In this document: positions 18,380-56,384 of the stretch, piece after piece
How positions within the stretch are numbered: the stretch's first letter is position 1
Layout: every line of letters begins with the position of its first letter
From: a virus
Lineage: Duplodnaviria > Caudoviricetes
IMG/VR virus record: IMGVR_UViG_3300027747_002427
Length of the DNA: 64,000 nt
Strand: one strand, 5' to 3'
Program-made: the position numbers and the translations under genes
The notes under the pieces: model-generated
Databases searched by the model: none
Seen by the model: only the letters and a program-made list of their open reading frames with translations
Told to the model about the DNA's origin: nothing

Positions 18380-18437
18380 GCCTATAATTTCTCAGAATCT
18401 TCTTTTCTTTTCCTACAATCCCTATTATAATAAGGGC

Positions 18438-18617
18438 ATGAAAAATAACAACACCACAGTAGACGAGTATTACGAGAACGTGATGAAGGCCGCTAAGACC
18501 CTGGAGGAGTACTATGAGAAGATGGCTAACTTCACTCCAGTTCCCGAGAACAAGAAGACCTATCAGATGTTTAGGAGGGAGATGAGGGATCTTTGGAAGA
18601 CCCACGCTGCCTATTAA
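18438..18617 (+). CDS. Cassette gene, 59 aa (MKNNNT...), missing from the ORF track
   Basis: TATAAT-6 nt-ATG; GC3-rich codons. Confidence 0.7.
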   Translation: MKNNNTTVDEYYENVMKAAKTLEEYYEKMANFTPVPENKKTYQMFRREMRDLWKTHAAY

Positions 18618-18656
18618 GATCTTGAGTTTTCCCACAATAACCTATATACTAAGAGT

Positions 18657-18896
18657 ATGAAAAATAAAAACAAGTACCCCATCAACGGATCGATCATGGA
18701 AGGCGTTAGTGTTCGCACAGGCGTCCATCAATATGATGATAAGAATAGAACGGTAGTAGAATTGACCTTCCAGGGCTATAATAGCTCCTATGTCCAGGTC
18801 ATAGATATTAACACCGCGGCGAGCCTTATTAAACAGCTTAGGGAGCAAGGTATTGCCCAGGCTGAGTATATTACAGCCGCCGAGGTATTCGCTTGA
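18657..18896 (+). CDS. Cassette gene (MKNK)
   Basis: Promoter repeat upstream; stop lies in the next -35 box. Confidence 0.75.
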   Translation: MKNKNKYPINGSIMEGVSVRTGVHQYDDKNRTVVELTFQGYNSSYVQVIDINTAASLIKQLREQGIAQAEYITAAEVFA

Positions 18897-18927
18897 TCTT
18901 TCCCCCTAAAACCTATATACTAATAGT

Positions 18928-19176
18928 ATGAAAAATAAAGAATACACCATCAATACAGATCCCAAGGGCCTCGACTACATCATTGGTAACTACCATATGT
19001 ATCGAAGCGATGTCTACGATGCCTTGGAGAAGCTTCAGCAATACCTAGATGATTCTCACGTTAAAGCCGTTCTAGAGAGCGAGGATCCTGAGATTCAAGA
19101 GCGTTTGAGTGAGGAGTGCCTCCATCTTGACTTCACTACCTTTCTAGAGGATCTCAAAGGAGCCATGGGATACTAA
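18928..19176 (+). CDS. Cassette gene (MKNK)
   Basis: Promoter repeat upstream. Confidence 0.75.
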   Translation: MKNKEYTINTDPKGLDYIIGNYHMYRSDVYDALEKLQQYLDDSHVKAVLESEDPEIQERLSEECLHLDFTTFLEDLKGAMGY

Positions 19177-19351
19177 ATAGATATATGATCGAAGATACTA
19201 CCAAGCATCCGACTGGTGAGTTACCCCCTACTCCGGAGCCTCCTAAGTTCCCAGAGCCTGTGATAGCTCCCCCAGTACCTGCACCTACAAACGAATAACC
19301 CTATCACATTTGGTTCTTGAGTTTTCCCACTAAACCCTTTATACTTAAAGT

Positions 19352-19537
19352 ATGAAAAATAAGAACACCGTAAAGGATATCGTCACCCACCTGGAGTCCA
19401 CGGGCAAGTCCCCGGACTACATCATCGGAACCCTGATGGCCATGCTCGATGGTCTCACCTATGAGTATAGTGGGACCGCGCAGCAGACCATCGATAGTTA
19501 CATCAACCACCACCTCAACCCCAATACCAACGCCTAA
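19352..19537 (+). CDS. Cassette gene (MKNK), KSPDYII paralog family
   Basis: Promoter repeat upstream; similar to ORFs 15630 and 32795. Confidence 0.75.
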   Translation: MKNKNTVKDIVTHLESTGKSPDYIIGTLMAMLDGLTYEYSGTAQQTIDSYINHHLNPNTNA

Positions 19538-19538
19538 T

Positions 19539-19877
19539 ATGGGAGCCTACATCTACCGCCTCAAGGGCAGCAAGGCCTTCACTCTGATGAAGATTGATGG
19601 CCAGATCCAGCGAGTCTATGACTACGTCTATTGGTACAAGCCTTACTATACCGGCATGTTCGAGAGTGAGCCTAAGTGGATGAAGCCTGTTCGAATGCTT
19701 GATACTCGCCTCCGTAACGCGTTTGCAAAGGTTGAGCCTGTTAAGTGGGTTCGCCACGTCAATGATATGGGAGAGAAAGATGACTACATTATGGAGTGGC
19801 CTGGCGGTATTAGCATTAGCGATTACAACGAGCGCTATCAGAATGCTCGTAGGATCCCAGTAAGCGATTTGGCTTGA
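19539..19877 (+). CDS. Hypothetical protein coupled via TAATATG
   Basis: Start MGAYIYRL directly after the upstream TAA; stop in the next -35 box. Confidence 0.65.
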   Translation: MGAYIYRLKGSKAFTLMKIDGQIQRVYDYVYWYKPYYTGMFESEPKWMKPVRMLDTRLRNAFAKVEPVKWVRHVNDMGEKDDYIMEWPGGISISDYNERYQNARRIPVSDLA

Positions 19878-19908
19878 GATTTCCCCCTAAACCCATTATA
19901 CTAATAGT

Positions 19909-20109
19909 ATGAAAAATAAAGACCACGACGAGATCATCACCACCCACAACCACCGCCTCATCCGCCTTGACGCCCAGAAGAAGTTCGTCGAGCAGATGAT
20001 TAAGGACCTTCAGGTGCAATATACTACCCTCAGCGATGACTGGGACGAGACCTGGAGGAGCCGGCAGTATTACATTAACAGAGAAGAAGAGAGTGCCGTT
20101 ACCACCTAA
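19909..20109 (+). CDS. Cassette gene (MKNK)
   Basis: Promoter repeat upstream. Confidence 0.75.
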   Translation: MKNKDHDEIITTHNHRLIRLDAQKKFVEQMIKDLQVQYTTLSDDWDETWRSRQYYINREEESAVTT

Positions 20110-20128
20110 ACCCTAGATAATAATATAT

Positions 20129-20572
20129 ATGAATAAGAAAGCCACCTCACCGCTCCTAGAGCTCACCGCCACCTCCTCCTATAATAGCCTCCAGAAGGCC
20201 GTAGAAGGCCGTTGTAAAGACCGTAGTCGCGAAGGCAATGTAGGTCTTACCTTCTCTATCTTTGAGACAAATAAGACCTTGGATAAGGGTCTGGATAGTG
20301 GAGACTGGATTGTCAATCACCCAGATATCTTTGATGAGGGCGCCGTATTCGAAGGTAAGTGCGTCTTCTATAGCGATTACTGGAGGATCTCTGATAAAGA
20401 GGTCTACAGCGAAGTAATGGAACACCCAAGCTGGAGGGAGATCATTAGCGAATGTAATCGCCAGTTGATTGATCAAGAGGATGGTAGCACCGCTTGCCTC
20501 TTCCTCGAGGGCTTTACCGAGATGGAACCTAAAGACGGAGTCCGAGTCTTCGAGATCGATTGGGGTTCTTAG
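20129..20572 (+). CDS. Hypothetical protein
   Basis: Partial promoter repeat upstream; HVFLEGF-like CLFLEGF motif. Confidence 0.6.
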   Translation: MNKKATSPLLELTATSSYNSLQKAVEGRCKDRSREGNVGLTFSIFETNKTLDKGLDSGDWIVNHPDIFDEGAVFEGKCVFYSDYWRISDKEVYSEVMEHPSWREIISECNRQLIDQEDGSTACLFLEGFTEMEPKDGVRVFEIDWGS

Positions 20573-20610
20573 AGGTTGACCTTTCCCCCTAAATCCTTTA
20601 TACTAAGAGT

Positions 20611-20850
20611 ATGAAAAATAAAGCATATCAGTTCTCCATCATGTCGGAAGAAGAACGCTCTATACATCTCTTTTATACCATTGAAGGTATGGTAGAGACC
20701 TTAGAGCTGATTGGTAAGCAGCTTGATACAGAAGCTCTTAATGGAGCCTCTCGCCTCGCTAAGCTTGCAGATATTAACGAAGAGATCGAATTACTCTTCT
20801 TGAGAGTTCACAAAGACTACCACGCAAACAAAACCAAGGAAGCCATCTAA
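20611..20850 (+). CDS. Cassette gene (MKNK)
   Basis: Promoter repeat upstream. Confidence 0.75.
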   Translation: MKNKAYQFSIMSEEERSIHLFYTIEGMVETLELIGKQLDTEALNGASRLAKLADINEEIELLFLRVHKDYHANKTKEAI

Positions 20851-21085
20851 TATGACCTATAGGAAACTAATCGCCCATCTCCAAGAGAAATACGCAGAGC
20901 ATCTGGATGATCCTGTAAAGCTCGAGTCTATGCACGATAACGCGATTTATCACGTGTTTAGCGCGCGTACAGCGCATAAAGATGTGCCTTATGACGACAT
21001 CAAAGAGGATGATCTCATTCTACTAATCGAATATCCACACTAATTGGGGGTTGACTTTTCCCCGGTAATCCGTTATACTAATAGT

Positions 21086-21757
21086 ATGAAAAATAAGAAC
21101 AAGCAAAAGAAGATTTCCAGGAAACAAGCCATCGCTGATTCCCGGGTACCAGTAAAGGTTTCCCGGAAACGTATTCCCAAGAACGAGCGTATCAACAAGG
21201 CAGACCAGTTTGAATACCTAGGAATTGATACCTGGGTAAAGACTTTCCAGGGAACTAAGAAGTTCCCACATAATAAGATTACCTGTTCTGAATGCCGGCA
21301 TAATACGGTTTCCATGTTTGGTAACCAGCTAGCGAATTACCTGGCAAAGTATAACGGGGATACCCGGAAACTCCTTACCGAGTTCAAGTGTCGCGTATGT
21401 CGTTCCCTGGACAAAGAGGCTATCAAGTTGAAGGAGCCTAAAGAGCCTAAGGTAAAGGTAGAAAAGGAAAAGGTATTCCTTTCCCCGGAAGAGTGGGAAG
21501 CTCGTAAGGAGGAGGTTCGTAAGACCCTTCCTAAGATGGATCCTAACTACCAAACCCAGGAAATCGATTTGGTTAAGGACAAGGAGACGTGTTCCCAGGT
21601 AACAGCCATGGCATGCTGGCGCCCAGACATCTTCCTCAATCTCGGATGCGCCGAGTGTGTTCTACAGAAGAATTGTGCTTGTCCAATTAAGGATATCAAT
21701 CGTATTCCAGACAATCGCCCAAGGAAATTCAAGAGGGCAGTAACGAAAGCCGCTTGA
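21086..21757 (+). CDS. Cassette gene (MKNK), Cys-rich putative zinc-binding protein
   Basis: CSEC...CRVC and a C-terminal C..C...CAEC...CAC cluster. Confidence 0.7.
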   Translation: MKNKNKQKKISRKQAIADSRVPVKVSRKRIPKNERINKADQFEYLGIDTWVKTFQGTKKFPHNKITCSECRHNTVSMFGNQLANYLAKYNGDTRKLLTEFKCRVCRSLDKEAIKLKEPKEPKVKVEKEKVFLSPEEWEARKEEVRKTLPKMDPNYQTQEIDLVKDKETCSQVTAMACWRPDIFLNLGCAECVLQKNCACPIKDINRIPDNRPRKFKRAVTKAA

Positions 21758-22001
21758 TAAACGTTTAACCTATAGTATTATTTTAATATGCACGTATGGC
21801 AATCAAAGAGAGTTTTAAAGACAGGACCTATCTACCAAGTACCTACTTGGGTAAAGAACCGACCGAAGGCAATAGCTACAGCGGACTGGGAGCAGATGGT
21901 AAAGGACTTCAAGTTCAACAAGCTTATTGTACTAGATAAGGTTCCTAAGACTAGTAAGAAAAAGAATTTCGCAACAAACGAAAGAAAGGAAAACAACAAC
22001 A

Positions 22002-22238
22002 ATGACAAAAACAATCGCTAATACGATCGTTCGCAATATCAGTGATCTCACTGGCCGCACTGTCTCCAGCCGTACAGGCAAGGCAGCAAAGCTTGAGCTG
22101 ATCTCTGAGAGCATCAATGAGAGTCGCTATGAGATTCTCGGTCTCGTTGGACGCAGTAATAACGTCATGCTTCGCCCACGTTTTCACAACGTGCGTAACA
22201 AGCAGGGCCGCTTCACTGCTCGCCGCCGCAGCCGCTAA
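22002..22238 (+). CDS. Small basic protein with RNKQGRF motif
   Basis: 78-aa ORF with GC3-rich codons. Confidence 0.6.
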   Translation: MTKTIANTIVRNISDLTGRTVSSRTGKAAKLELISESINESRYEILGLVGRSNNVMLRPRFHNVRNKQGRFTARRRSR

Positions 22239-22243
22239 AGATT

Positions 22244-22322
22244 AAGGGTCTAGTGAATAGATTGCAGGGAGAGCCTGCTCGGGAAGTTTTTATTCCTCAT
22301 TGAACACACTAGACCTTTTTCT
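22244..22322 (+). terminator. Branched terminator-like RNA
   Basis: 12-bp closing stem (22244-22255/22307-22318) with two internal hairpins, then a T run. Confidence 0.5.
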
Positions 22323-22628
22323 TTCTTTTTAGATTGACATTTCCCCCTTAATCCTTTATTATATATACATGATTGATTCAAACCTGTATCGCAAAATTGA
22401 AATGGCCGGCGAAGCACTTCTCGCTGATTACAAGCTAACCTATCCTGATATGAGTGATAGTCAGATCCGTACAGATCTTCTTCTTAATCACGGATCGAAG
22501 GTTATACACATGAGTGTAGATAATGATCTCCTAGAAGGAATCATTGATAGCGATCGTCAAGACGATCCAGAGTACAAGGCTCTCCTTCTTATAGCTGGAG
22601 TATACTTCGTAACCCTCTAACCCTTTAT

Positions 22629-22704
22629 GCCTGTGTAGTCCAACGGCAGAGACAAGCGACTTAAAATCGCTCCAGTATCGGTTCGAATCCGATCACAGGT
22701 ACCA
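22629..22704 (+). tRNA. tRNA-Leu(UAA), short variable loop
   Basis: GCCTGTG/CACAGGT acceptor stem, AGCGA-CTTAAAA-TCGCT anticodon arm, GTTCGAATC, encoded CCA. Confidence 0.85.
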
Positions 22705-23293
22705 CTTTAAGATTGACCTTTCCCACCAATTGCTATAATATATAAACAATGAAACACCTCCTACACCTCTTAGGGTTTACTCAACGTAAGCCTTCACTCC
22801 TCCTCATGCATATGTGTGACGTCACTCACGGCACCTGGCTTCAGGATCTTTATCGTACCAATCGTCTTAGCGACTACAACGTAAAGAAGTAACATGATCT
22901 GGCCTAAAGACCCTCCAGTGACTCGTTCCGAATTCCGCCGAGCTTTGAATCTTCATTGTCATAATAAGCTTGGAGTCAGCTTCAGTGACCTTCCAGACAT
23001 TATCAATATCGATGACGTATGGTGGGAGGGACAGACCATTGGAGAAGCTCTCACTATGATTAACAGTTGTATTGAAGACTTTAAAGAAGAAATGGGTGTT
23101 GCACTTTCCCACTAACAGGAGTATAATAATAATAATATGATCATCGAATTCTCACCTGGCAAGTTACCAAAGAGTAAAGAAGCTTTGAAGGATATTATCC
23201 TCGAAGCAGTCAAGAAGTCTTCAACGAACCCTGATGCCGTTAATGCCGGCCGACAGCCTCAGGACAATAATACAAAGGCCGGCGTTACTCAAT

Positions 23294-23512
23294 ATGCAAA
23301 CTAAAGTCACACTCACGGATCTAATTCGTAATATCTTGACCGCAGAGCAGGAGTTGTCCGTAAAGGATATCCTTACTAAAGTACAAGAGACTATTGCAGG
23401 CGAGCAGCTGACCATCAAGGCCGATTACCGTAAGGTTTATCGTCACCTTCGTACGTGCGCCACTAAGACGGCACGCGGTCAGTTCTCCCTCACCGAGACC
23501 TCTGCCTCCTAA
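23294..23512 (+). CDS. Small winged-helix-like protein
   Basis: LIRNIL...LSVKDIL...KVYRHLR...RGQFSL pattern. Confidence 0.45.
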   Translation: MQTKVTLTDLIRNILTAEQELSVKDILTKVQETIAGEQLTIKADYRKVYRHLRTCATKTARGQFSLTETSAS

Positions 23513-23536
23513 AGGTAAGTCTCGGCAACCATCAAC

Positions 23537-23627
23537 ACTGGGTTAATGTAATTGGAAGCATCGCACAGCTTATATCTGTGAATCCCTAGATGAGGGACGA
23601 GCATCGGTTCGATTCCGATACCCAGTA
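23537..23627 (+). tRNA. Atypical tRNA, anticodon UAU, long variable arm
   Basis: ACTGGGT/ACCCAGT; ATGT/GCAT D stem; CACAG-CTTATAT-CTGTG; TCCCT/AGGGA variable stem; ATCGG-TTCGATT-CCGAT. Confidence 0.75.
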
Positions 23628-23816
23628 CTTTTTATGACAGACACCAACACAACATCGAAAGAAGCAAAAGTATTCGCACTCTGCCAGGACCTGGAAGATA
23701 TGCGAGATCGTAAGAAGGCATCTAGCAAAGCCTTTAGCGATGAGATCAAGCGTATTCAAGCGGAGATCAAGGATCTTATAGATCCTTCCGAGCCTGAAGA
23801 AGCTCCATAGTATTAC

Positions 23817-23889
23817 GCCCTTGTAGCTCAATGGTCAGAGCAGTCGGCTCATAACTGATTGGTTGGGGGTTCGAATCCCTCCGGGGGCA
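23817..23889 (+). tRNA. tRNA with CAU anticodon (Met or Ile2)
   Basis: Cloverleaf with a CTCATAA loop. Confidence 0.85.
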
Positions 23890-23895
23890 CTCTAT

Positions 23896-23971
23896 GCATC
23901 GGTAGCTCAGTGGATAGAGCAGGGGTTTTCTAAACCCTTGGTCGCAGGTTCGATCCCTGCCCGATGTACCA
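23896..23971 (+). tRNA. tRNA-Arg(UCU)
   Basis: Cloverleaf with a TTTCTAA loop and encoded CCA. Confidence 0.9.
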
Positions 23972-23974
23972 TTT

Positions 23975-24046
23975 GGAATCGTAGCTCAATGGTAGAGCAG
24001 TAGACTTTTAATCTATTGGTTATGGGTTCGAGTCCCATCGATTCCA
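23975..24046 (+). tRNA. tRNA-Lys(UUU)
   Basis: Cloverleaf with a CTTTTAA loop. Confidence 0.9.
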
Positions 24047-24127
24047 CTTTAATACAACAGCATGATATAATAGCGCCGGCCTCTCTATTATCGTGAATTT
24101 TCCCACTAAATGATTGATACTAATAGT

Positions 24128-24298
24128 ATGAAAAATAACAACAGTGCAGTTGCAGCAGAGATCGAAGCGCTCCACCAGGAGATCGCTACCCTCAAGGCCC
24201 AGATCAAAGATCTGGTTAACGTCACCAACAACAACAAAGAGGTCCTCTTCGATCTTCTCGAAGTCCTCAAGAACCCAGCCTCAGCATACCTCGTCTAA
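24128..24298 (+). CDS. Cassette gene (MKNN), coiled-coil
   Basis: Promoter repeat upstream. Confidence 0.7.
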   Translation: MKNNNSAVAAEIEALHQEIATLKAQIKDLVNVTNNNKEVLFDLLEVLKNPASAYLV

Positions 24299-24302
24299 TA
24301 AT

Positions 24303-24671
24303 ATGGCAACACGTTCCCAAGTTAAGTTCTCCGATCGCGGAGTAGTCGCAGCTAATATCTATGTCCACTATGATGGATACCCAGAAGGTGAAGCTGGTCG
24401 TCTCAATCAGCTTCAGCGCTTCTTTAAGTGTGTGAAGGAGAATTGCAGAGACACTCGCTTTCATGATGCAGAGTATCTTGCAGCCAAGTACATCGTTTGG
24501 TATGCTACAGAGTATTGTAAGGATGAGGAGAATCCCAAGCATGCTCTAGACTTCTCAGGCATTGGAATCTGTCTCGAGGACCATGGTGACATTGAGTACA
24601 CCTACCTGGTTGATTGTGACCATCACGATCCAGAGACTGGGTTCCCTACCGTCGATGTTAGGAAGCGGTAA
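24303..24671 (+). CDS. Conserved phage protein (MATRS...IYVHYDGYPEG type)
   Basis: Recognisable IYxHxDGYP motif. Confidence 0.7.
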   Translation: MATRSQVKFSDRGVVAANIYVHYDGYPEGEAGRLNQLQRFFKCVKENCRDTRFHDAEYLAAKYIVWYATEYCKDEENPKHALDFSGIGICLEDHGDIEYTYLVDCDHHDPETGFPTVDVRKR

Positions 24672-24738
24672 CATTTGAGGTGGTAAGGGGGGAAAGATTG
24701 TGGTGGTCTTTCCCCCCAAATCTCTTTATACTAAGAGT

Positions 24739-24891
24739 ATGAAAAATAAGAACACCGTCAAAGCCACCACAGTCATCAAGAACATCCGCCGCATGATCAG
24801 CCAGCCGGCCATGCAGGGACCGAAGCACCAGGCCTGGAGGGAGTCCTGGTTGCACGTCATCAAAGGTCTTGAGAGGGGCGAATCGATTTGA
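24739..24891 (+). CDS. Cassette gene (MKNK)
   Basis: Promoter repeat upstream; stop in the next -35 box. Confidence 0.7.
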   Translation: MKNKNTVKATTVIKNIRRMISQPAMQGPKHQAWRESWLHVIKGLERGESI

Positions 24892-24922
24892 TTTTCCCCC
24901 ATAAATCCTAGATAATAAATGT

Positions 24923-25147
24923 ATGAAAAATAAGAACACATTCGAAGAGATCATGAACGAGTACAAGGCCCTGGACCAGATGTTCAAGCAGATGGTCCGC
25001 AACACCGCGGTGATGGAGCTCAAGGAGTGGGGCGTCGAGGAGATCGGAAGCTCGGACGTGAACTGCCAGATCGTCGACCTCTACAACAGCTACGGCGGAT
25101 TCGACGAGATTGTCCGACATGGGTTGGACCTTGTCCGTAGCCGATAA
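24923..25147 (+). CDS. Cassette gene (MKNK)
   Basis: Promoter repeat upstream. Confidence 0.75.
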   Translation: MKNKNTFEEIMNEYKALDQMFKQMVRNTAVMELKEWGVEEIGSSDVNCQIVDLYNSYGGFDEIVRHGLDLVRSR

Positions 25148-25185
25148 GGATTGAAATTCCCACCTAAACCTCATATAATAATAGT

Positions 25186-25506
25186 ATGAAAATTAAGAAT
25201 GCACGTATGCAGTGGAGCAATGAAAAGCGTACCACGAAGTCCGTCCTCTACTTCTTCCCGGTTGGAGAGACCATCATAGACAACCTCGCTATGCGCCGTA
25301 AACGCCCTATAAAAGAGTTTCGCGCACTTATACCTGAAGTATGCGCAGCAGTAGGTCTCAATATGGCAGACCATAAGTTCAGCTGGAGCCAGAAGGCAGG
25401 TTGCTCTTGCGGTTGCTCGCCTGGCTTCGTAGTAAAGCATCTCTATAGTAAGCAGATCTTCTGCGATGTTACCATGGACAATGACTTCGAGGGTCTTGGC
25501 CTTTAA
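25186..25506 (+). CDS. Cassette gene (MKIK) with AGCSCGCSPGF motif
   Basis: Promoter repeat upstream; CxCxC metal-binding motif seen in other phage proteins. Confidence 0.75.
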   Translation: MKIKNARMQWSNEKRTTKSVLYFFPVGETIIDNLAMRRKRPIKEFRALIPEVCAAVGLNMADHKFSWSQKAGCSCGCSPGFVVKHLYSKQIFCDVTMDNDFEGLGL

Positions 25507-25543
25507 GATTGTCTTTCCCACCTAAACCCAATATAATAATAGT

Positions 25544-25816
25544 ATGAAAATTAAACAATACGTTATAGACCTCCTCACGTTCGGCTTCGTTGCTCTGGCC
25601 TTCAGTGCAGCAAGCGCCGGCCTCACCGCTGCCTACTATCAGCACCTCGCCGTGGTTCACAATGCCGCAACGTACGAGGCAAGCAGCTGGGGTAATGTAA
25701 GCTTCCACTGGAACGATGTTAGCTACGCGCAAGCACCCTTCCAAGACCCAGCGGAGACCCAGAAGAAAATGGATGACGCCTTCGCTAAAGAACTCAAAGC
25801 CAAAGGCATCAAGTAA
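25544..25816 (+). CDS. Cassette gene (MKIK), membrane protein
   Basis: Promoter repeat upstream; N-terminal hydrophobic helix. Confidence 0.75.
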   Translation: MKIKQYVIDLLTFGFVALAFSAASAGLTAAYYQHLAVVHNAATYEASSWGNVSFHWNDVSYAQAPFQDPAETQKKMDDAFAKELKAKGIK

Positions 25817-26078
25817 CACCTAACACCTACCTAATATGAAAATCACAGCTTCCACTAAAGAGAAACTTAAGCACGTGTCCTATGTAGTCGAGGACGTACC
25901 TAACTTCGGAACAGCCATTTACACTGATGTGTACAACGAGAATGATAGGATAGTCGATAGCTTCATTCGTACCGAAGACGGATACGCAATCGAAGCACCG
26001 GCTCTCTTCGAGACCATTCAGGACTTTGTATGCAGCAATAGTGTTGAGGTTTCTCCCTAAATGCTTTATACTAAGAGT

Positions 26079-26399
26079 ATGAAAAATAAGAACACCACAC
26101 TGACCGAGCTCGAAACCCAAATCCTCACCCTCCTGTTCAAGGACGCCGAGGGCAACGGCCACGACTTCGGCATCATCGAGAACCTCAGCGACTACGAAGG
26201 CGTCGACATGAAGGTCGCGCGCGGAGTCCTCAGCTCCCTGGTCCAGAAAGACATCATCACCATCCACGAGTATCGCTTCGAGATGGGAATGGAACAGGGC
26301 TGCACCCAGTTCACCTGGAACCACGTTCCCGCCGATATCTACCCAGAGAGCATCACCCACGTACTCCCAGAGAATGTAACCCTGGGAGTTGCAGCTTGA
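26079..26399 (+). CDS. Cassette gene (MKNK), possible winged helix
   Basis: Promoter repeat upstream; ARGVLSSLVQKDII resembles a wHTH; stop in the next -35 box. Confidence 0.7.
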   Translation: MKNKNTTLTELETQILTLLFKDAEGNGHDFGIIENLSDYEGVDMKVARGVLSSLVQKDIITIHEYRFEMGMEQGCTQFTWNHVPADIYPESITHVLPENVTLGVAA

Positions 26400-26430
26400 G
26401 ATTCCCACCTAAACATAATATAATAATAGT

Positions 26431-26673
26431 ATGAAAAATAAGAACATCCACCAACAGTATCAGGAAATCATCGACTCCATCAAGGCCCTCGGCACGGTCC
26501 GCATCCAGGAGGCTCTGGCGAACCTCGAGAAGGACTTCCAACTAACCTCCAACGTCTATGCTCGTATGGGACTCCTCGGAAGGATCCAGATGCATGAGAG
26601 GGCTCTCAAGGAGCTTACCAACACCGAGAAGAGCCTGGAGATCCTCGACGAAGCCTTTGCCACCCACGCCTAA
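26431..26673 (+). CDS. Cassette gene (MKNK)
   Basis: Promoter repeat upstream. Confidence 0.75.
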   Translation: MKNKNIHQQYQEIIDSIKALGTVRIQEALANLEKDFQLTSNVYARMGLLGRIQMHERALKELTNTEKSLEILDEAFATHA

Positions 26674-27094
26674 TATGGAACAACCTCCTAAAGATTATCA
26701 ACTGAAGTTAGTCATCGAGAAGCTGGAGAAGAGTTTAGACAAGCTCTCTGTCCTCGAATACGAAATCAAAGACGCCCTAATGTTAGCAGCAGACCTCTAC
26801 GAGAGAATCACCAACAACAACGACTAATATGAAGATCGAAACCAAAGCCTACGAAGTCCTAGAAGAGCTGATGGACGGAACCAACAAGCTAGAGAAGCTC
26901 TATAGAGCAGCAACTCATCGCCCAGACTCACCTTGGATTGAGAAGCCAGGACGCTTCGCAGACTGGGTAGGAGGCCAAATGCTAGAGGCCATGGAAGAAG
27001 AGCTTAGGCACCTAGAGCAGAGGTTCATTACAGATGAAGCTCTCCTAGCCATGGTAGATAAGAGCTAATATCATTTTCATACCCGCGGTGGGGT

Positions 27095-27130
27095 AAGGGA
27101 GGAGGTCTGTGGTGGGCCTCCTCCCTTTTT
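27095..27130 (+). terminator. Intrinsic terminator
   Basis: AGGGAGGAGG...CCTCCTCCCT-TTTT. Confidence 0.8.
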
Positions 27131-27168
27131 GTATTGTCTTTCCCCCATAAAGAGATTATAATAATAGT

Positions 27169-27534
27169 ATGAAAATTGAGAACACCACACCCACCGAAGC
27201 CCAAATCGAACTCGCCGGATACCTCCTCACGCGCGAGGTAACCTTCACCGAGGAGTGCGAGGCCAACCCCAAGATCCAGTGGTTCGCCGTGGCCAGCTAC
27301 ACCCTCGAGGACATCATGGGCCTCACCCCCTACCGCAGCGGCTACGCGGACATCGCCGAGTACGAGCACCAGGAGGACCTCATCGAGGCCAAGGAGGCTC
27401 GTAAGAACTCCTACTATGACTACGACGACGAGCAGCGCGCCTGGTTCGAGAAGGAAGAAGAGGCTCATCGAAACGCTCTCAAGGAGCTGGTGAGTTCCGA
27501 GTACAAGCCACTGGGGGTAGGACTCCCCCTTTAA
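27169..27534 (+). CDS. Cassette gene (MKIE), acidic
   Basis: Promoter repeat upstream; almost all codons end in C/G. Confidence 0.75.
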   Translation: MKIENTTPTEAQIELAGYLLTREVTFTEECEANPKIQWFAVASYTLEDIMGLTPYRSGYADIAEYEHQEDLIEAKEARKNSYYDYDDEQRAWFEKEEEAHRNALKELVSSEYKPLGVGLPL

Positions 27535-27572
27535 GGCTTGGCTTTCCCCCTTACTTGATAGATAATAATAGT

Positions 27573-27803
27573 ATGAACAATAAGATCACCATTGGAGAGT
27601 TAAAGAAAGGTCAGCGATTCAAGTACGGCAACAGCGGCATCTATGAGTGCGCCAACCCGTACTGGCCTCAGGCCCGGAACCCAGCCTACCGCTCAGCTAA
27701 GATCATCGTGGTAGTTCCATCAATCAACCCGGAGGCTACCTACCCAACAGTACCAGGCCAGTGTGTCACCTTCAATCACAGGACCAAAGTGGAGCTCCTT
27801 TAG
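27573..27803 (+). CDS. Cassette gene (MNNK)
   Basis: Promoter repeat upstream. Confidence 0.7.
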   Translation: MNNKITIGELKKGQRFKYGNSGIYECANPYWPQARNPAYRSAKIIVVVPSINPEATYPTVPGQCVTFNHRTKVELL

Positions 27804-27840
27804 ACTTTCTTTTCCCCCATAACCATTATATAATAATAGT

Positions 27841-28062
27841 ATGAAAAATAAGAACATCGAAGTAGGTTCCATCGTCACCCTCAACTCCAACACCGATCGT
27901 GTCCACCGCGTCACCAAGGTCGATGAGTTCGGCATCTGCACAACGCCAGCGGGAGGCCAGCCAGAGTACCAGTCCAGGTACGGCTCCTTCCCTCTCGCTT
28001 CCTGGGAGGTTGTTACCCTCGCTACAGAGGAGCAGCTCAAGCTAGTAGGCACCTGGCGCTAA
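27841..28062 (+). CDS. Cassette gene (MKNK), SH3/KOW-like
   Basis: IEVGSIVTL...HRVTKV pattern; promoter repeat upstream. Confidence 0.7.
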   Translation: MKNKNIEVGSIVTLNSNTDRVHRVTKVDEFGICTTPAGGQPEYQSRYGSFPLASWEVVTLATEEQLKLVGTWR

Positions 28063-28101
28063 GGGGTTGACCTTTCCCCCATTATAGGTTATACTTATAG
28101 T

Positions 28102-28404
28102 ATGAAAAATAAGAAGACCCAATACACCGCCACAGCCCCTAACGGAGACGTCCTCAGCGTCACCTCCACGCGCCCGCTGGTCGAGTGCCACGTCGCCATC
28201 AACAAGGAGACCAACGCCACGGGAGCCTACCGCTGGACCATCAAGCGCCAGGGCAAGGCCTCCGCCTCCTCCTGCGGCTACAGCTTCGGCTACGTGGGTA
28301 GCTGGTGCACGGACGCTGCCAAGTACAATGCCGAGGCCGACAAAGAGAAGGCCTTGCGCAACGCCAAGTACACCTTCCACATCGTCCCAGTGGTCGCCGC
28401 CTAA
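28102..28404 (+). CDS. Cassette gene (MKNK)
   Basis: Promoter repeat upstream. Confidence 0.75.
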   Translation: MKNKKTQYTATAPNGDVLSVTSTRPLVECHVAINKETNATGAYRWTIKRQGKASASSCGYSFGYVGSWCTDAAKYNAEADKEKALRNAKYTFHIVPVVAA

Positions 28405-28624
28405 GCTTAACGACCGCGGTCGGATACCTACCGGTCTTAATAGCGACCAGGGGTAATACTACCGACCGCGGTATGCTAGGACCCCGGACGTTCAAATTTG
28501 TTAATAGGGGAATAGCAAGCAGAAACGGCCGGGGGGCAATCCCGCGTATATAGGGGGGTACCCTGGTATTAAATCGCCAAAGTATTAAATTGCTATTCCC
28601 TTATATAAGTAATAATATATTTTA

Positions 28625-28993
28625 TATGAAAAATAAAGATCAAATCATGTTAGAGTCTCTGTATACTAATAGTATGAAAAATAAGAACACCAAGCCCGCC
28701 CTCAAAGCTCTCTTCCCTGGCCAGGAGGTCTCTGTAATGGGCTTCAGGGAGTATGGTAAAGTTATCGAGCGTCAAAAGGAGAAGGTTATGGGCAATACTG
28801 TCTATAGGGTCAAGTGTGAGGGTAAGGAGTTTAATGTATCTCGCCGTCAACTTGGCGTTCGAGTTAACAATATCTTTAAGTTCGGTCCTTACAATACAAC
28901 CGATCTTCCTGCTTGAAGTTCTAATCAAATTCCCTTATACTAATAGTATGAAAAATAAAGATCAAATCATGTTAGAGTCTCTGTATACTAATA
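28625..28993 (+). repeat. 47-bp exact direct repeat (28625-28671 and 28947-28993)
   Basis: TATGAAAAATAAAGATCAAATCATGTTAGAGTCTCTGTATACTAATA occurs twice, 322 bp apart. Confidence 0.95.
28674..28916 (+). CDS. Cassette gene (MKNK), SH3/KOW-like, between the 47-bp repeats
   Basis: FPGQEVSV...GKVI...VYRVKC pattern; stop in the next -35 box. Confidence 0.7.
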   Translation: MKNKNTKPALKALFPGQEVSVMGFREYGKVIERQKEKVMGNTVYRVKCEGKEFNVSRRQLGVRVNNIFKFGPYNTTDLPA

Positions 28994-29358
28994 AGGTATT
29001 GAAAGAGGACGAAGAGAATGGAGATAATGTATTAAAGAAGTATACCTATGAGATTCTTTATAGAACTGATTACAAATATGATCCTAAGACAAAGAAGGCT
29101 ATAAGTTGGTCTTATGGTTCTCATTCTAGAGGTTGGCCGGATCTCCGACATGAATTTGCTTATTCTGATGATGATTTTTGGTCTAAGATAGATGATTCTG
29201 GATATAGTGGTGGTAAGGATGAATTAAGAAAATCCATAGTTATTAAAAATGTTGAACCTGCTGATTTGAGAGAGGTTGAGCATGAGAAGAGAAAAAATAA
29301 GGCTATATCAGATTATTATAGTAATGCGAGTAAGACGGGTTCTTATTCGGGTGATTAG
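28948..29358 (+). CDS. Hypothetical protein with DQIMLESLY N-terminal motif
   Basis: Start reassigned to the promoter-linked ATG. Confidence 0.65.
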   Translation: MKNKDQIMLESLYTNKVLKEDEENGDNVLKKYTYEILYRTDYKYDPKTKKAISWSYGSHSRGWPDLRHEFAYSDDDFWSKIDDSGYSGGKDELRKSIVIKNVEPADLREVEHEKRKNKAISDYYSNASKTGSYSGD

Positions 29359-29380
29359 AGGAGGTTTCAGTTTAATAAAG

Positions 29381-29408
29381 AAAAAGGACTCTTCGGAGTC
29401 CTTTTTTT
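29381..29408. terminator. Bidirectional UUCG terminator
   Basis: AAAAAGGACTC-TTCG-GAGTCCTTTTTTT. Confidence 0.9.
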
Positions 29409-30830
29409 ATTGTTTTTCTTTTATGATCTCTTATAATAGAGACTATGAAAATTACTCGTTATGAACCAATATTAGCTGATTGGGGAGAACCGGATATGGT
29501 AGAGGATGATTATGGTTTTTATGTTACTCATTATGAATATACTAAGCTTTTAGAGAAGTATAAGCAATTAAAGAAAGAGAATAGAGAGCTTAAAAAGGCT
29601 TTTGAAGATGAGTATGATTGATTCTAAGAAGATAGCAGTTAAGTTAGGTCATCTCTCTATTGGTAGAGGTATCTATGATAGAGATGGAAAGAAGTATGTA
29701 AATCCTCATACCTTTGGAGATGATGTATATTTGGAAGATCCTACTAACTATCATTATATAAAGTATGAGAATGGTAAATTTGTAGATAGTGATGGATTTG
29801 TTATCTATATCAATTTTTAAGGGTTGAGGTTTCCCTTATAATTTACTATTATATATACATGCTTAAAAGAGATAATTGGACCATAGAAGAAGCAGAAGAT
29901 ATTCTATTAGGGAATACTATTGCCTATACTAAGAGAAACGGAGTCGCTATTGATGATCCGGAGTTCTATAGGAACATGGATCGTAATAAGGGTATCTATA
30001 AGGTTATTAATGATGTTAAGACTTCTCAGAAGTCTATTTGGACTAATAATGAGCTTATAGACCATATTGATAATAATCAGTTTAAGATGGATGATTCCTG
30101 GACCAAAGAGGAATGGGACTCTAAGGGACAATGGAATCAAGGTTTAGAACAATGTGCTATTCAATTTGGAGACTTTAAAGAAGATCCTGAAGAGTCCTAT
30201 AGTGCAATGGCCTATGATACTGAAACAAAGCGAATTTATGTTATTTCCCAACCACTACCACAATGAGAACATTTAATACAAAGAACAAAGAAGGACACCC
30301 TATTACGTTTAAAGGAATCAAGTATCTATTCCTTATTGATGATCAGGGAGTAGGCATTAGGAGAGCAGATAATAAAGTTCCTTTGCCAGAGGACATTGTC
30401 TCTCTTACAGACTATCTCTTTCAAGAAGGATTTGCTAACCCAGAGGATTTTGAAACAGAACAATAATATGAATACGGCTCAACACATTGCAAGTAGGAGG
30501 GTACAAGAATATAAGGTCCAGCTTCGAGGAGCCTATCAGGGGAACTATAGAGTTCTTTGTATGCGTAAAGAAGGTCTAGAGAATGAGACTCTTATTTTTA
30601 CGGATACAGAGAGACCACTTCAAATTTATAATAAGGATATTGAAGAATTGGTTATAGATGCTATATTAACCAAATAATATGCTCGTTTTATTACTCCTTT
30701 TTATTATAGCTTTGTATTATAGAGAGCACGGACCACTCTGAAATTGTACCCCCTTGATAAAAAAATTTTTTTGGCTCGGCGGGTTAATATACTCATTCCG
30801 GCGCGCGCTCTTGGTAAGTAAATAATAACC

Positions 30831-31415
30831 ATGAAAAACAGAGACACAATAATGTTAGAAGAAGCCTATAATTTAATCTTAGAAGCTAAGAAGAAAAAAC
30901 TTACTCCTAAGGAAAAGAAGATTGCAGGTGCAGCAGAGCCTTATGACAAGATCACAAGAGCAGACATTATTACTTTAGCTAAGAACAAGAACAAGAAGAC
31001 AAATAATGAGTCTACTGGACTTGAACAAGCTTATAATCAGCAAGACGAAGTTGCTGCAAAGAAGATCGCTGAGAAATTAAAAGGAACACCTAATTTAAAC
31101 ATTGCAACAATTAAGATGTACGTTGCAAAGTATCTACCCATGATTGGCAAGGGAGAAAGTGATGTAGATCACTTAACAGCATTAGTTCATGATAATCTTT
31201 CTGAATTAGGCTTAGTAGAAGCCTCTGCTGGAATCGAAGATCAAGAAGAGTATCATTGTGATTATGCCGCAGACGGATGCGACTGTGATGGTTGTGAAGA
31301 GTGCAAAGCTAACCAAAAGAAAGAAGTTCAGGAAAATGAGATGAAGTGTGAATACGCTAAGAAGGGTTGTGATTGTGATGGTTGTGAAGAGTGCAAAGCT
31401 AACCAAAAATCCTAA
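30831..31415 (+). CDS. Protein with DTIMLEEAY N-terminus and duplicated Cys-rich C-terminal motif
   Basis: Two CxYxxxGCDCDGCEECKANQK units; 35-bp exact DNA repeat at 31284 and 31374. Confidence 0.65.
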   Translation: MKNRDTIMLEEAYNLILEAKKKKLTPKEKKIAGAAEPYDKITRADIITLAKNKNKKTNNESTGLEQAYNQQDEVAAKKIAEKLKGTPNLNIATIKMYVAKYLPMIGKGESDVDHLTALVHDNLSELGLVEASAGIEDQEEYHCDYAADGCDCDGCEECKANQKKEVQENEMKCEYAKKGCDCDGCEECKANQKS

Positions 31416-50432: not shown

Positions 50433-50506
50433 GCCTGGTTAGTTTAATGGTAAAACGGTTGATTTGTAATCATCAAACAAGAGTTCGATTCTCTTACTAG
50501 GCTCCA
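50433..50506 (+). tRNA. tRNA-Thr(UGU)
   Basis: Cloverleaf with a TTTGTAA loop and CCA. Confidence 0.85.
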
Positions 50507-50674
50507 CCATCCTTGTAGGGGGTAAGTATTTATGTGCTTACTGTATTTGAAGGCGCTATGACGGGGTTGATGCTTATTCCCTTTGTAATTGGTTATATAA
50601 CTTTTTTAATATTTAAATATACTTGTAAAATTCTTCTTGCAATTATACGTAAACTATCATAGTATATAAACCAT

Positions 50675-50746
50675 GTCCTCATAGTGTAGCGGTTAGCACC
50701 AGCCCCTTTCACGGGCTTAGCAGGGGTTCAAATCCCCTTGAGGATG
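50675..50746 (+). tRNA. tRNA-Glu(UUC)
   Basis: Cloverleaf with a CTTTCAC loop. Confidence 0.85.
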
Positions 50747-50762
50747 TTAAATAATTTTATAT

Positions 50763-50852
50763 GGAAGCTTACTCAAGCGGTTTACGAGAGCGGTTTACTA
50801 AACCGCCGAGCCTTCATCGGCTCCGTGGGTTCGAATCCCACAGCTTCCTCCA
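50763..50852 (+). tRNA. tRNA-Ser with ACU anticodon
   Basis: GCGGT-TTACTAA-ACCGC; long variable arm GAGCC/GGCTC; CCA. Confidence 0.85.
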
Positions 50853-50855
50853 TAT

Positions 50856-50933
50856 GCGTCAATGCCTGAGAAGCCCAAAGGAAAGGTCTGCAAAACCTTA
50901 AAGCCGTAGGTGCAAATCCTACTTGACGCTCCA
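50856..50933 (+). tRNA. tRNA-Cys(GCA), divergent D and T loops
   Basis: AAGGT-CTGCAAA-ACCTT; U73; CCA; T loop TGCAAAT. Confidence 0.75.
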
Positions 50934-50940
50934 TTTTAAC

Positions 50941-51029
50941 GGAAGTGTGTCTGAGTGGTTTAAAGAGTCAGTCTTGAAAACTGAAGAGGTCTAAAGCCTC
51001 CGTGGGTTCGAATCCCACCGCTTCCTCCA
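50941..51029 (+). tRNA. tRNA-Ser(UGA)
   Basis: Class II cloverleaf with a CTTGAAA loop and CCA. Confidence 0.9.
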
Positions 51030-51052
51030 TATAAAAGGGGGTAAGTATTTAT

Positions 51053-51406
51053 ATGTTTACAAGAATTAAAGATACTCTCCAAGGTAAAGCTCCTATAACA
51101 GCTTCTCGCTCTCCTAAATGGAATGGTGTGAGAGATGCACATTTAAAACAACAACCTAATTGTGCAGTTTGCGAAGGTAATGAAAATCTTAATGTTCATC
51201 ATATTAAACCCTTTCATTTACACCCAGATTTAGAATTAGAACCTACTAATCTTATTACTCTTTGTGAATGTGAGAAGCATGGTGTTAATTGTCATTTACT
51301 CATTGGGCATTTAGGTAATTTTAGAAATGTTAATCCACATGTGTTAGAAGATGTTCCACTTTGGAATGCTAGACTAAAAGAAAAAAACAATAATCCAGAC
51401 TTATAG
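51053..51406 (+). CDS. HNH endonuclease
   Basis: CAVC...NVHHIKP...NLITLC...CHLLIGH. Confidence 0.85.
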   Translation: MFTRIKDTLQGKAPITASRSPKWNGVRDAHLKQQPNCAVCEGNENLNVHHIKPFHLHPDLELEPTNLITLCECEKHGVNCHLLIGHLGNFRNVNPHVLEDVPLWNARLKEKNNNPDL

Positions 51407-51454
51407 TTATTGCCTTACTGATGAAGATGTATTAATATATACATCATAAGCATC

Positions 51455-51529
51455 CGGGATGTAGCTCAGCTTGGCTAGAGCGCTTGGTTTGGGACCAAGA
51501 TGTCGTAGGTTCGAATCCTATCATCCCGA
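51455..51529 (+). tRNA. tRNA-Pro(UGG)
   Basis: CGGGATG/CATCCCG acceptor stem; TTTGGGA loop. Confidence 0.9.
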
Positions 51530-51536
51530 AATTTAA

Positions 51537-51611
51537 TGTCGAGTAGCTCAGTGGTAGAGCGGAGAGCTGTTAACTCTTTGGTCGTAGGTTCAAATCCTAC
51601 CTCGACAGCCA
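51537..51611 (+). tRNA. tRNA-Asn(GUU)
   Basis: Cloverleaf with a CTGTTAA loop and CCA. Confidence 0.9.
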
Positions 51612-52311
51612 ACTTTTTTTGAAACTCTTAGGGTAAGTAATATCATCTATGACCCTTTCTCCAGTAGTTTCCTCTCTCCCAGCCACTCCAAATATAGGGT
51701 GGAATAATTCTTGGGTTTCCGTACCCAATGACCAAAGTAGATCTTTATTTGCTCAAGCAATGTATAAAGTTAATGAATTAGGTAGTAATGGAATTACAGT
51801 TATTGCTGGGACTAATCAAGTAGATGGTAAATTTGGGGGTCTTCAAACAATAACTTCAACGGTTTTTGCAGGATTGACTTCTTCCGGGACTACAGCAGTA
51901 AGTGCGATATCTATTCCTACATTCCCAGCTGGGTTCGTTTTAAACGGCAATTTTACATCTATAAAATTAACAAGTGGTCAAGTCATTGCTTATAACGCTT
52001 AAATTATAAATATAATATCATGAGTATAAAAATAGTAACAAAACCAGAAGAATCATTAACAATTGAATCCGTAGAAGTAATAGCTGTAAGAGATTTATTT
52101 GACGAAAAAAAGATTATAGCTCGTATAGCAGGTCTCCCTAGAGGCGTTATCCTTTGGGAAGGAGATACAGAATATACAGCAGCCGGTAATTGGACAAATG
52201 AAACAGCAATAGCTAAGGCAAACGAGGTTATTAATTCCGGTTCTATTAAGTGGGCTTAATTTAGCTTAAAAAACTAATTGCATTTATTAATCATTTCTTT
52301 ATAATAAGGGA

Positions 52312-53310
52312 ATGATTAATTTTGTTGATATCATAGTAGGTCTTGCTTGGGGGGATGAAGGCAAAGGTAAAGTCTCAAGCGCTTTAGCCAAAGATTATGA
52401 CATGGTATGTCGTTGGAATGGTGGTCCAAATGCTGGTCATACGGTTTATCTAAATGATAAGAAATATAAAACACATCTGATTCCTTCTGGAGTATTTCAC
52501 GGTAAGCCTTCTATTATAGGTCCTAATTGTGTTATTAATATCAGCAAGTTTTGGGAAGAGATGGAATATCTTAAAGAGAATGGGTTTGATACTTCTTTAG
52601 TAAAAATTCATCCTCATGCTCATGTGATTACTAAAGATCATATTAAATTTGATTTGGATTATCTCAAACCAAAATTAGGAACAACCGGTCAAGGCATTGC
52701 TCCTTGTTATGCGGCAAAAGCAAATAGAGTAGGAGTTCAAATTAAAGATTCTTCGATTGATCCGATATATCATTGGAATGGAAAATTACAAGGTAAAATT
52801 CTTTGCGAAGGAGCACAAAGTATTTGGTTGGATATCAATTACGGGGATTATCCTTATGTAACAAGTTCTGAAACGTTTCCTCATAATGCTTGTTCTCTTG
52901 GATTTTCTCCAAAAAAGATCAGAGACATTATTGGAGTAGCAAAGATCTATGATACAAAAAGTGGTGTAGATCCTTTATTTCCAGAAACACTTTGGGACGA
53001 TCCTATTCTTGATAAAGTCATTGAAATTGGAGGAGAAGTAGGAACGACAACTGGAAGAAAAAGAATTGTAAACTGGCTAAATGTTAGAAAGCTAGTTGAG
53101 GCTATTAATCTTTCAGGAGTAACAAAGCTTATTATTAATAAGTGTGATGTACTAGAAAAGGTTGGCGAATTTAGATATAATTTTGATAATAATGGATTTG
53201 TATCAATTGGTCTTAATCCATTTAAGAAAAGTTTAACAAAAGATATAATAGAAAACACAGAACTTAAAGAAGAAGATATTGTATTTTCCGGTGACACGAC
53301 TAAAATATAA
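52312..53310 (+). CDS. purA: Adenylosuccinate synthetase
   Basis: WGDEGKGK, GGPNAGHT, GTTGQGIAP, EGAQ, YPYVTSS, GTTTGRKR, NKCD. Confidence 0.93.
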   Translation: MINFVDIIVGLAWGDEGKGKVSSALAKDYDMVCRWNGGPNAGHTVYLNDKKYKTHLIPSGVFHGKPSIIGPNCVINISKFWEEMEYLKENGFDTSLVKIHPHAHVITKDHIKFDLDYLKPKLGTTGQGIAPCYAAKANRVGVQIKDSSIDPIYHWNGKLQGKILCEGAQSIWLDINYGDYPYVTSSETFPHNACSLGFSPKKIRDIIGVAKIYDTKSGVDPLFPETLWDDPILDKVIEIGGEVGTTTGRKRIVNWLNVRKLVEAINLSGVTKLIINKCDVLEKVGEFRYNFDNNGFVSIGLNPFKKSLTKDIIENTELKEEDIVFSGDTTKI

Positions 53311-53312
53311 CC

Positions 53313-53627
53313 ATGAGTAATTCCACATCATCAGCCTTCAAAGGCATTCCCACTAAACTTACAAACAATCCAGAGGTTGTTGAAGAAATTCTTCTTACAG
53401 AAGTTCCTGTAATTGATGAGACTTTATTAGAAACACCATCTACTGAAACACCTATAGTTGAAGTACCAATTGCAGAAGGTTCATTATTAGAGAATCCTAT
53501 TATTGATGAAACTTTATTAGAAGAAGGTTCTTTAGAAGAACAACATAAAGATCTTTTGAAGAAAGAGGAAAGTGTTTTGGAAAGAAAGATTGAAGTTTTA
53601 GAAGAACTTAAAACTTTAATTTCTTAA
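53313..53627 (+). CDS. Acidic low-complexity protein with repeated LLE/IxE motifs
   Basis: IDETLLE occurs twice; also SLLE, ILLTE, VLE. Confidence 0.55.
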   Translation: MSNSTSSAFKGIPTKLTNNPEVVEEILLTEVPVIDETLLETPSTETPIVEVPIAEGSLLENPIIDETLLEEGSLEEQHKDLLKKEESVLERKIEVLEELKTLIS

Positions 53628-53635
53628 AAATTTAT

Positions 53636-53706
53636 TTCCTGGTGGTGTAATGGTAGCACAAGAGTTTTTGGCACTCTTTGTCGAGGTTCGAGTCCTTGCC
53701 GGGAAG
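53636..53706 (+). tRNA. tRNA-Gln(UUG)
   Basis: Cloverleaf with a TTTTGGC loop. Confidence 0.85.
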
Positions 53707-54114
53707 CTTTTTAGTTGATATTCCTTTATAAAACATTTAATATATAAACAATGAGCGAAGAAAATACAAAGACAGTAAGACTAATGGAATCCTTTACCAC
53801 ATATGAGTGCCATGGAGACATTAAACTTAATCTTGATATTTTCCCGGAATTGAAAGATAAGACAAATCAAGAAATTCAAACTTGGTTAAATGAAAATTCT
53901 GGTAATCTTTATATTGATTGTTATAGCCAAGAACTTCGCAAAGATCAATATTATATATATTCCCAAGAAGAATTAGATGATATGTTGGTTAATGGAGAAG
54001 ATCCTGAAATAGATGATAGTGTAATAGAACTTTCAGAATATTGGTCAAATACGGAAGTGATTTGGGATAAAATCAAGTGTGAAGAAAAGACTTTGCATGT
54101 ACAATAATTTAAAT

Positions 54115-56383: not shown

Positions 56384-56384
56384 T

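Follow-up and report, generated by a model that had tools for sequence, protein, structure and literature searches.

An apparent insertion of an array gene and its promoter into the start of a late-type gene, bounded by a 47-bp duplication, in an uncultured freshwater phage

Here, we describe a locus in a 64,000-nt stretch of Caudoviricetes DNA (IMG/VR record IMGVR_UViG_3300027747_002427; "the window" means this whole stretch, as analysed) that is very probably a derived insertion allele, in which one gene of an early-type array, together with the promoter following it, has been joined into the first 47 bp of a target gene. The arrangement is read as derived since homologues of the inserted cassette gene are bound to the array and orthologues of the target gene are led by an upstream element of their own.

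The 64-kb window represents part of a large uncultured freshwater phage with 16 tRNA genes, ribonucleotide reductase genes and a PurZ-family match. The runs that contain the stretch are freshwater or lake metagenomes, and part of it is contained in runs X7, X10 and X12 (RNA). A blastn comparison of window positions 27000-31000 with 50,697 phage records gave zero matches. The tRNA genes fall into two clusters, at 22629-24047 (inside the high-GC array) and at 50433-56458, and one of the calls, tRNA-Ile(tat) at 23537-23628, is unusually long (92 nt). The PurZ-type match is an adenylosuccinate-synthetase-like protein of 332 aa encoded at 52312-53310 on the + strand (phrog_1211, E 2.8e-68), which may point to a modified-base (2-aminoadenine) pathway in this phage.

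The array comprises about 20 small genes on the + strand (18437-28404), and its GC content of 47% stands against 33% elsewhere in the window; from a base level of about 33%, GC reaches 45-51% in the block at 18.4-28.4 kb. The array genes individually range from 40% to 62% GC, with a tendency upward toward the 3′ end of the array. Each gene is preceded by a sigma70-like promoter (TTGAnn, 17 nt, TATA[CA]T), followed by 6 nt and then ATGAAAAATAA. The 17-nt spacer often opens with TTTCCCCC, and AATAGT separates the TATA[CA]T box from ATGAAAAATAA. About 20 copies of this promoter repeat occur at 18.4-29 kb, in a hyperplastic region of small ORFans, and the stop codon of the preceding gene usually falls in or beside the -35 box (..GCTTGA..), with intergenic distances of about 31-40 nt. 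Since the -10 box ends 6 nt ahead of the ATG, with no Shine-Dalgarno sequence in between, the array transcripts are predicted to be leaderless on the basis of this consensus promoter geometry. A Shine-Dalgarno-like motif precedes only 9 of the 105 window ORFs of at least 70 aa, and the pattern TTGAnn-17-TATnAT ending 6-7 nt before the ATG is also present at many non-array genes (13997, 22369, 29859, 44550, 53751), so that leaderless or Shine-Dalgarno-independent starts seem to be genome-wide.

The last array gene is separated from the interrupted gene by a GC-rich (52%), moderately structured spacer (28405-28590, + strand; MFE -73.7 kcal/mol, z = -2.46). An Rfam scan over 17-31 kb returned tRNAs only, with no match for this spacer, and several relatives' contigs stop inside it; the spacer may be a boundary element or a terminator of the early block.

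Downstream of this spacer, direct comparison of the sequence bore out the predicted exact duplication: an identical 47-mer stands at 28625-28671 and at 28947-28993, with a start-to-start spacing of 322 bp, and a single array-type gene and a single array promoter lie between the copies, as had also been predicted. The base before the copies differs (A versus G), as do those after them (GTATG.. versus AGGTA..), so the repeat is exactly 47 bp long. An exact match of this length cannot be due to chance, and the exact 47-mer was absent from the IMG/VR scan. All features of the locus lie on the + strand. The native upstream region of the interrupted gene (28595-28624) contains the T4-late-promoter-like sequence TATAAGTA at 28604-28611. 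It is followed by repeat copy 1 (28625-28671), comprising the final base of the upstream region, the ATG and the initial 15 codons of the leader (MKNKDQIMLESLYTN), and then by a single G at 28672, which separates copy 1 from the cassette part. The inserted cassette gene (28674-28916) encodes 80 aa, starts with MKNKNTKPAL and is present as a single copy in the window. Copy 1 is in frame with it, giving a fusion ORF of 96 codons (MKNKDQIMLESLYTNSMKNKNTKPAL.., 28626-28916) that consists of 15 leader codons, one Ser codon derived from a promoter remnant and the 80-codon cassette protein, and that reads MKNKDQIMLESLYTNS followed by MKNKNTK....

An array-type promoter (28913-28946) comes next, with a -35 box TTGAAG at 28913-28918 whose TGA is the stop codon of the cassette gene, a 17-nt spacer, a -10 box TATACT at 28936-28941 and then AATAG. 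Repeat copy 2 (28947-28993) represents the true 5′ end of the interrupted target gene, which extends over 28948-29358, starts with MKNKDQIMLESLYTNK.. and encodes 136 aa with a leader of the family M..D.I.L.E.Y. An intrinsic-terminator-like hairpin past the target gene (29379-29408) is the first downstream of the whole unit and the only one on the + strand in 27500-30000; within 28600-29379, the terminator scan gave no such site on this strand.

Both junctions lie in short strings that belong to the array repeat and also sit in the target leader. The left-junction microhomology TATACTAATA (10 nt, 28662-28671, + strand) recurs at 28936-28945 and 28984-28993, and the right-junction-type microhomology TATGAAAAATAA (12 nt, 28673-28684, + strand) recurs at 28625-28636 and 28947-28958; the 47-bp repeat thereby opens with TATGAAAAATAA and closes with TATACTAATA. 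TATGAAAAATAA, which encodes the MKNK start common to the array genes and the target leader, occurs 16 times without mismatch in the window, on the + strand in every case and within 18656-28947, and at no more than one mismatch it gives 23 matches versus 2.9 expected. Seven window copies of TATACTAATA were found: four in array-type promoters (18916, 19897, 21074, 28936), where it is the -10 box plus four bases, one in each repeat copy (28662, 28984) and one in the paralogue at 15003. In the target gene the same string provides Y-T-N codons, and there the right-hand homology TATGAAAAATAA lies 25 bp upstream of the left-hand TATACTAATA. The original prediction held that the duplicated N-terminus contains both microhomologies by chance; both are indeed contained in it, but chance is not the whole account, as the MKNK start is normal in leader-family relatives too. 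A shared 11-mer upstream of both copies, ATTCCCTTATA (28595 and 28929), was weighed as a possible third site of crossover and ruled out, being a common array-promoter spacer variant in relatives and already present in the empty allele.

The leader family of the target gene has six members in the window, with starts at 9109, 14967, 28948, 30831, 32795 and 34080. Across the window paralogues and orthologues, the leader follows M..D.I.L.E.Y or ..LIAEAY, and it ends in IMLE, IILE, LIAE, LQE or ILGE here and in LIAE-AY in relatives. TAAGTA stands 12-16 nt ahead of the ATG in four of the five other window paralogues. In 12 more distant related loci, orthologues that begin with M.NDE.LIAEAY or a similar leader carry TAAATA, TAAGTA or ATAAAT at a distance of about 13-19 nt from the ATG on its 5′ side; none of these 12 has a cassette at this position. 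Protein-guided scans with the target gene over IMG/VR and JGI metagenome contigs yielded distant relatives only (49-65% identity), which are informative for leader and promoter conservation and not for alleles. TAAGTA is a genuine and distinct element of upstream regions: of 29 occurrences, 17 are placed 11-20 nt ahead of the start codon of an ORF of 60 aa or more, whereas permuted hexamers have a median of 4%. Copy 1 had been described as following a late-type TAAGTA motif, and this agrees with an element that is tied to gene starts and carried by orthologues, "late" being a reading of the promoter type. In T4, the late promoter is an 8-bp sequence, TATAAATA, that depends on gp55, lies about 6 nt upstream of the transcription start and has no -35 box. 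TATAAGTA at 28604 matches this consensus at 7 of 8 positions, and TAAATA and TAAGTA alternate in the orthologues. No Pfam family was found for the cassette gene, the target gene or the target's paralogues. As side observations, a ribosomal protein S21 gene (PF01165) lies directly 3′ of the target homologue (74% identical) in two related contigs (L021, 5483-5665, and L022), and the paralogue at 30831-31415 ends with two 62-nt direct repeats (31257-31408, 82% identical), each of which is a Cys-rich CDCDGCEECKANQK module.

The predicted empty allele, with a 322-bp deletion that joins 28624 to 28947 (equivalent to 28671 joined to 28994), was found in L019 (ENA ERZ28593671), in L020 (JGI 3300032265, also in Logan) and in contig 27 of run X6 (394 nt; "skips 322, both = 47"). 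A filled arrangement with diverged copies in all relatives, which the original prediction had named as the finding that would speak against it, is therefore not what the relatives show. L019 and L020 were reached via a protein cluster 99% identical to the target gene and come from projects other than that of the window. In a 4396-nt ENA/JGI contig the gene offset is the same as in the empty allele. Both L019 and L020 run from the upstream region with TATAAGTA through one repeat copy straight into AAGGTATTG.., and their upstream sequence is identical to the window over about 28537-28624, including the 3′ part of the GC-rich spacer (from about 28537 onward). Their repeat copy departs from the window in a single synonymous T>A, position 34 being A in the empty alleles and T in both window copies, and the gene shows 3 mismatches in 412 nt. 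The empty-allele strains are about 99% identical to the window at the locus, and their gene content past 29358 differs from that of the window; they are close relatives and not its direct parent.

A second, 88%-identical TATAAGTA-type upstream region was observed in L019 (516-557), where it follows the target gene and precedes a different gene of 191 aa, and run X5 shows a joint of 29358 to 28604. The second copy in empty-allele strains makes the late-type upstream region itself appear as a dispersed repeat, which may mediate gene swaps.

For the cassette gene, 10 clusters of homologues were obtained. Homologues on seven related contigs (including L015/L016, L017, L018, L023 and L024) share 83-93% nucleotide identity with it where they align. 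Canonical array promoters flank them in every case, and their neighbours differ among L015/L016, L017, L018, L023 and L024: the readable ones comprise four different genes upstream and three different genes downstream, and L017 and L024 have the homologue and the MKNKNTKNDLL gene in opposite order. Downstream of the homologue in L018, L023 and L024, as in the window, lies an array-type promoter whose spacer is the ATTCCCTTATACT variant; judging from these sequences, the downstream promoter type travels with the cassette gene. The GC content of the cassette (45%) is close to that of the array (47%), and that of the target gene equals the rest of the window (33% for both). The array origin proposed for the inserted gene is thus borne out by its array-bound homologues and its array-like GC content. 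A near-identical donor copy was not found, the closest homologues having about 90-93% DNA identity; the donor could be the same genome or a co-infecting relative. The protein model (pLDDT 81) is an all-beta small barrel of predicted SH3/Tudor-like fold, and the fold search returned only Tudor/SH3/KOW-like barrels, none of them significant (E of at least 0.04 in the PDB and at least 0.008 in AFDB clusters). A 96-aa homologue, P0008, was considered as a second leader fusion and rejected, as its extension is translated promoter only.

From these comparisons, the order of upstream element, leader and gene appears to be ancestral, and the array promoter before the target gene is unique to the filled allele. 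The main alternative concerns timing. The filled form could be old in the lineage, with the present empty alleles as secondary deletions between the 47-bp copies and no fresh snapshot to be seen; a deletion between the direct repeats would yield exactly the empty form, the strains with the empty allele are unlike the window at other places, and conversion can maintain the identity of short repeats. We consider this improbable, as the A versus T at repeat position 34 would require an extra mutation in a deletion derivative, and as the orthologues in the 12 distant loci have the late-type element directly upstream, with the cassette in none of them. The insertion would in any case have had to come first, so that the timing alone would change. 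Of the recent snapshot that had been proposed, the insertion stands; the sign of recency is the 47/47 identity of the copies, which has little dating power.

The filled arrangement was recovered beyond the window itself. L014 (JGI sample 3300009154) is 100% identical to window positions 27000-29358 (2359 bp), through both copies. The run data were examined as contigs: the contigs of run X2 that lead from the upstream region into the repeat, from the repeat into the cassette and from the repeat into the gene are identical to the window, and a contig of run X4 extends without differences from the cassette end to 30 nt inside repeat copy 2. An assembly artefact, against which the original prediction had cautioned, is not what was found, as L014 spans both copies and the X2 and X4 contigs carry the junctions; the samples with the filled allele may share one campaign, which limits their independence. 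In X2 the depth of the 47-nt contig is 24.6, as compared to 13.8 upstream, 14.3 in the cassette and 12.5 in the gene. A doubled repeat depth with the cassette at the level of its flanks agrees with each genome having one cassette and two copies of the repeat.

These data also bear on the idea that the genome is empty and that the cassette with one repeat copy is a separate 322-bp circle, or belongs to another locus, and was threaded in by assemblers. A k-mer graph would show the same loop either way, since at k = 31 the 47-bp repeat collapses and the contigs of public runs break at its borders, and mini-circles have been documented for the PeSL (promoter-early stem-loop) repeats of T4-type phages (PMC2839356). 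However, the window and L014 assemblies read through both copies, the cassette depth in X2 equals that of the flanks with the repeat doubled, and the PeSL mini-circles were put at about 1 per 10^5 virions (PMC2839356), far from 1:1; the junction of repeat and cassette would require a molecule with leader and cassette fused regardless. A separate circle is, on this evidence, highly improbable.

For the insertion itself, the temporal direction and the recombination route are those we infer from the alleles and junctions. The ancestral target gene would have started right behind TATAAGTA, as it still does in the strains of about 99% identity, and the insert would be a unit of the early-gene array, one 80-codon gene plus its following promoter, with the left joint in TATACTAATA and the right joint in TATGAAAAATAA. 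Because the target has its right-hand homology 5′ of its left-hand homology, the 47 bp would become duplicated on both sides of the insert. Three routes can be proposed: (a) copy-choice, in which the growing strand would leave the target for the donor at TATACTAATA and return at TATGAAAAATAA; (b) ends-in invasion by a promoter-bounded fragment with gap repair; or (c) two crossovers, one after the other, involving more than two copies of the genome (three). A one-promoter circle entering by a single crossover, when worked by hand, gave a duplication of 10 or 12 bp and not 47, and was rejected as the sole step. For the extra 47-bp copy to arise, either a third partner would have to take part or DNA would have to be synthesized, through template switching or through gap repair after ends-in invasion. 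The original prediction was therefore right that an array fragment was joined through microhomologies, the junctions lying in 10 and 12 nt, but its two simple crossovers with one donor would give no extra 47-bp copy. Compared with known ends-in recombination with gap repair or microhomology-driven template switching, the locus is alike in that the target homology interval is duplicated around the incoming DNA and the junctions lie in short shared sequences; it is unlike them in the shortness of its homologies (10 and 12 nt). The enzymes at work may have been those of a T4-type UvsX/gp46-47 pathway or of replication slippage. Owing to the 47-bp direct repeat, the event would be reversible, the insert being lost by deletion or excised as a 322-bp circle. 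Insertion by a mobile element that encodes its own enzyme (a transposon, or a homing endonuclease or integron-like cassette) is hardly credible, since, although the directly duplicated flanks resemble a target-site duplication, the 275-bp insert holds only an 80-codon ORF (SH3/Tudor-like predicted fold, no Pfam family) and a promoter with no transposase or recombinase, both junctions fall within sequence shared with the array repeat, and a 47-bp duplication bounded by two homologies fits the geometry of recombination rather than a staggered cut.

The insertion would have changed the expression of both genes, whose classes are read from promoter type. The cassette protein is predicted to be expressed from the TATAAGTA element and to bear the 15-codon leader, fused in frame, as a tag. 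Its gene no longer has a -35 box of its own, the best candidate before its TATACT being ATCAAA (3 of 6 positions, by eye). The target gene stands under a complete TTGAAG-17-TATACT promoter, 6 nt from the ATG like every array gene, and a leaderless mRNA is predicted for it. Its proposed move under an early promoter holds in so far as a full array-type promoter lies at its ATG, "early" again denoting the promoter type. As no terminator-like site occurs before 29379, the target gene might also be reached by read-through from upstream.

Shuffling by repeated early promoters has been proposed as a main source of plasticity in T4-type phages, and the evidence so far consists mostly of indels between pairs of cultured coliphages or vibriophages and of mini-circles detected by PCR. 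The closest known system to the present locus is PeSL-mediated modular shuffling, of which the locus is a variant. PeSL shuffling was described in T4-type phages (Arbiol, Comeau and Krisch 2010, PMC2839356; Comeau et al. 2014, PMC4122927), with crossovers mapped between the -10 box and the ATG and with mini-circles seen, each made of one gene plus a chimeric repeat (PMC2839356), and mini-circle excision and re-insertion were proposed as a reversible route (PMC2839356, PMC4122927). As in that system, repeated early sigma70-type promoters flank small ORFans in a hyperplastic region, indels or replacements between close relatives are bounded by repeats (here, the changing cassette neighbours and the empty versus filled alleles), and the crossovers lie near the -10 box and the ATG. 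In contrast to PeSL, there is no stem-loop terminator before the promoter here and the stop codon lies inside the -35 box; there is no Shine-Dalgarno sequence, only AATAGT between the -10 box and the ATG, and leaderless mRNAs are predicted; and the repeat extends into coding sequence (MKNK). The insertion also differs in lying outside the array, in the coding start of a gene of another promoter class, in using homologies of 10-12 nt, and in leaving behind a 47-bp duplication and a protein fusion.

The leader invites a second comparison. The T4 internal proteins IPII and IPIII (from NC_000866) begin with MKTYQEFIAE-A, and the first 10 residues of IPIII suffice to load foreign proteins into the T4 head and are removed by the gp21 prohead protease (PMC9026906, PMC3012670). 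Capsid-targeting leaders of this kind end in an (L/I)-x-E protease site. Similar to this capsid-targeting sequence, the leader found here is an N-terminal stretch of about 10 residues with a hydrophobic-x-E end, common to otherwise unrelated proteins, and the genes that carry it stand behind an element resembling TATAAATA. In contrast, the motif here is D.I.L.E.Y and that of T4 is YQEFIAE, a short resemblance in sequence only. By this analogy, a capsid-targeting-like leader and a late-type promoter might have been duplicated onto an early-array ORFan, which would make the fusion a candidate for packaging into the head (with processing at IMLE|S) and injection, and would leave the original gene intact. 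We regard this capture of a leader as a tentative and rather doubtful reading. If it were true, promoter-repeat arrays would be a feedstock for new internal or ejected proteins of T4-like phages, and the MKNK start common to array and leader genes would make this a recurrent route.

Our results place the states before and after a cassette insertion side by side in natural freshwater populations, with every junction readable to the base. They indicate that a shared sequence of 10-12 nt would be enough for such an event, that cassettes can leave the array and land in the coding sequence of a gene of another regulatory class, and that a swap of promoters and an in-frame leader fusion can both come from a single event. 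The locus offers a PCR-testable difference of 322 bp by which the rates of cassette insertion and excision could be followed in an uncultured phage. It also suggests, and does not show, a route by which new virion-packaged proteins could arise.
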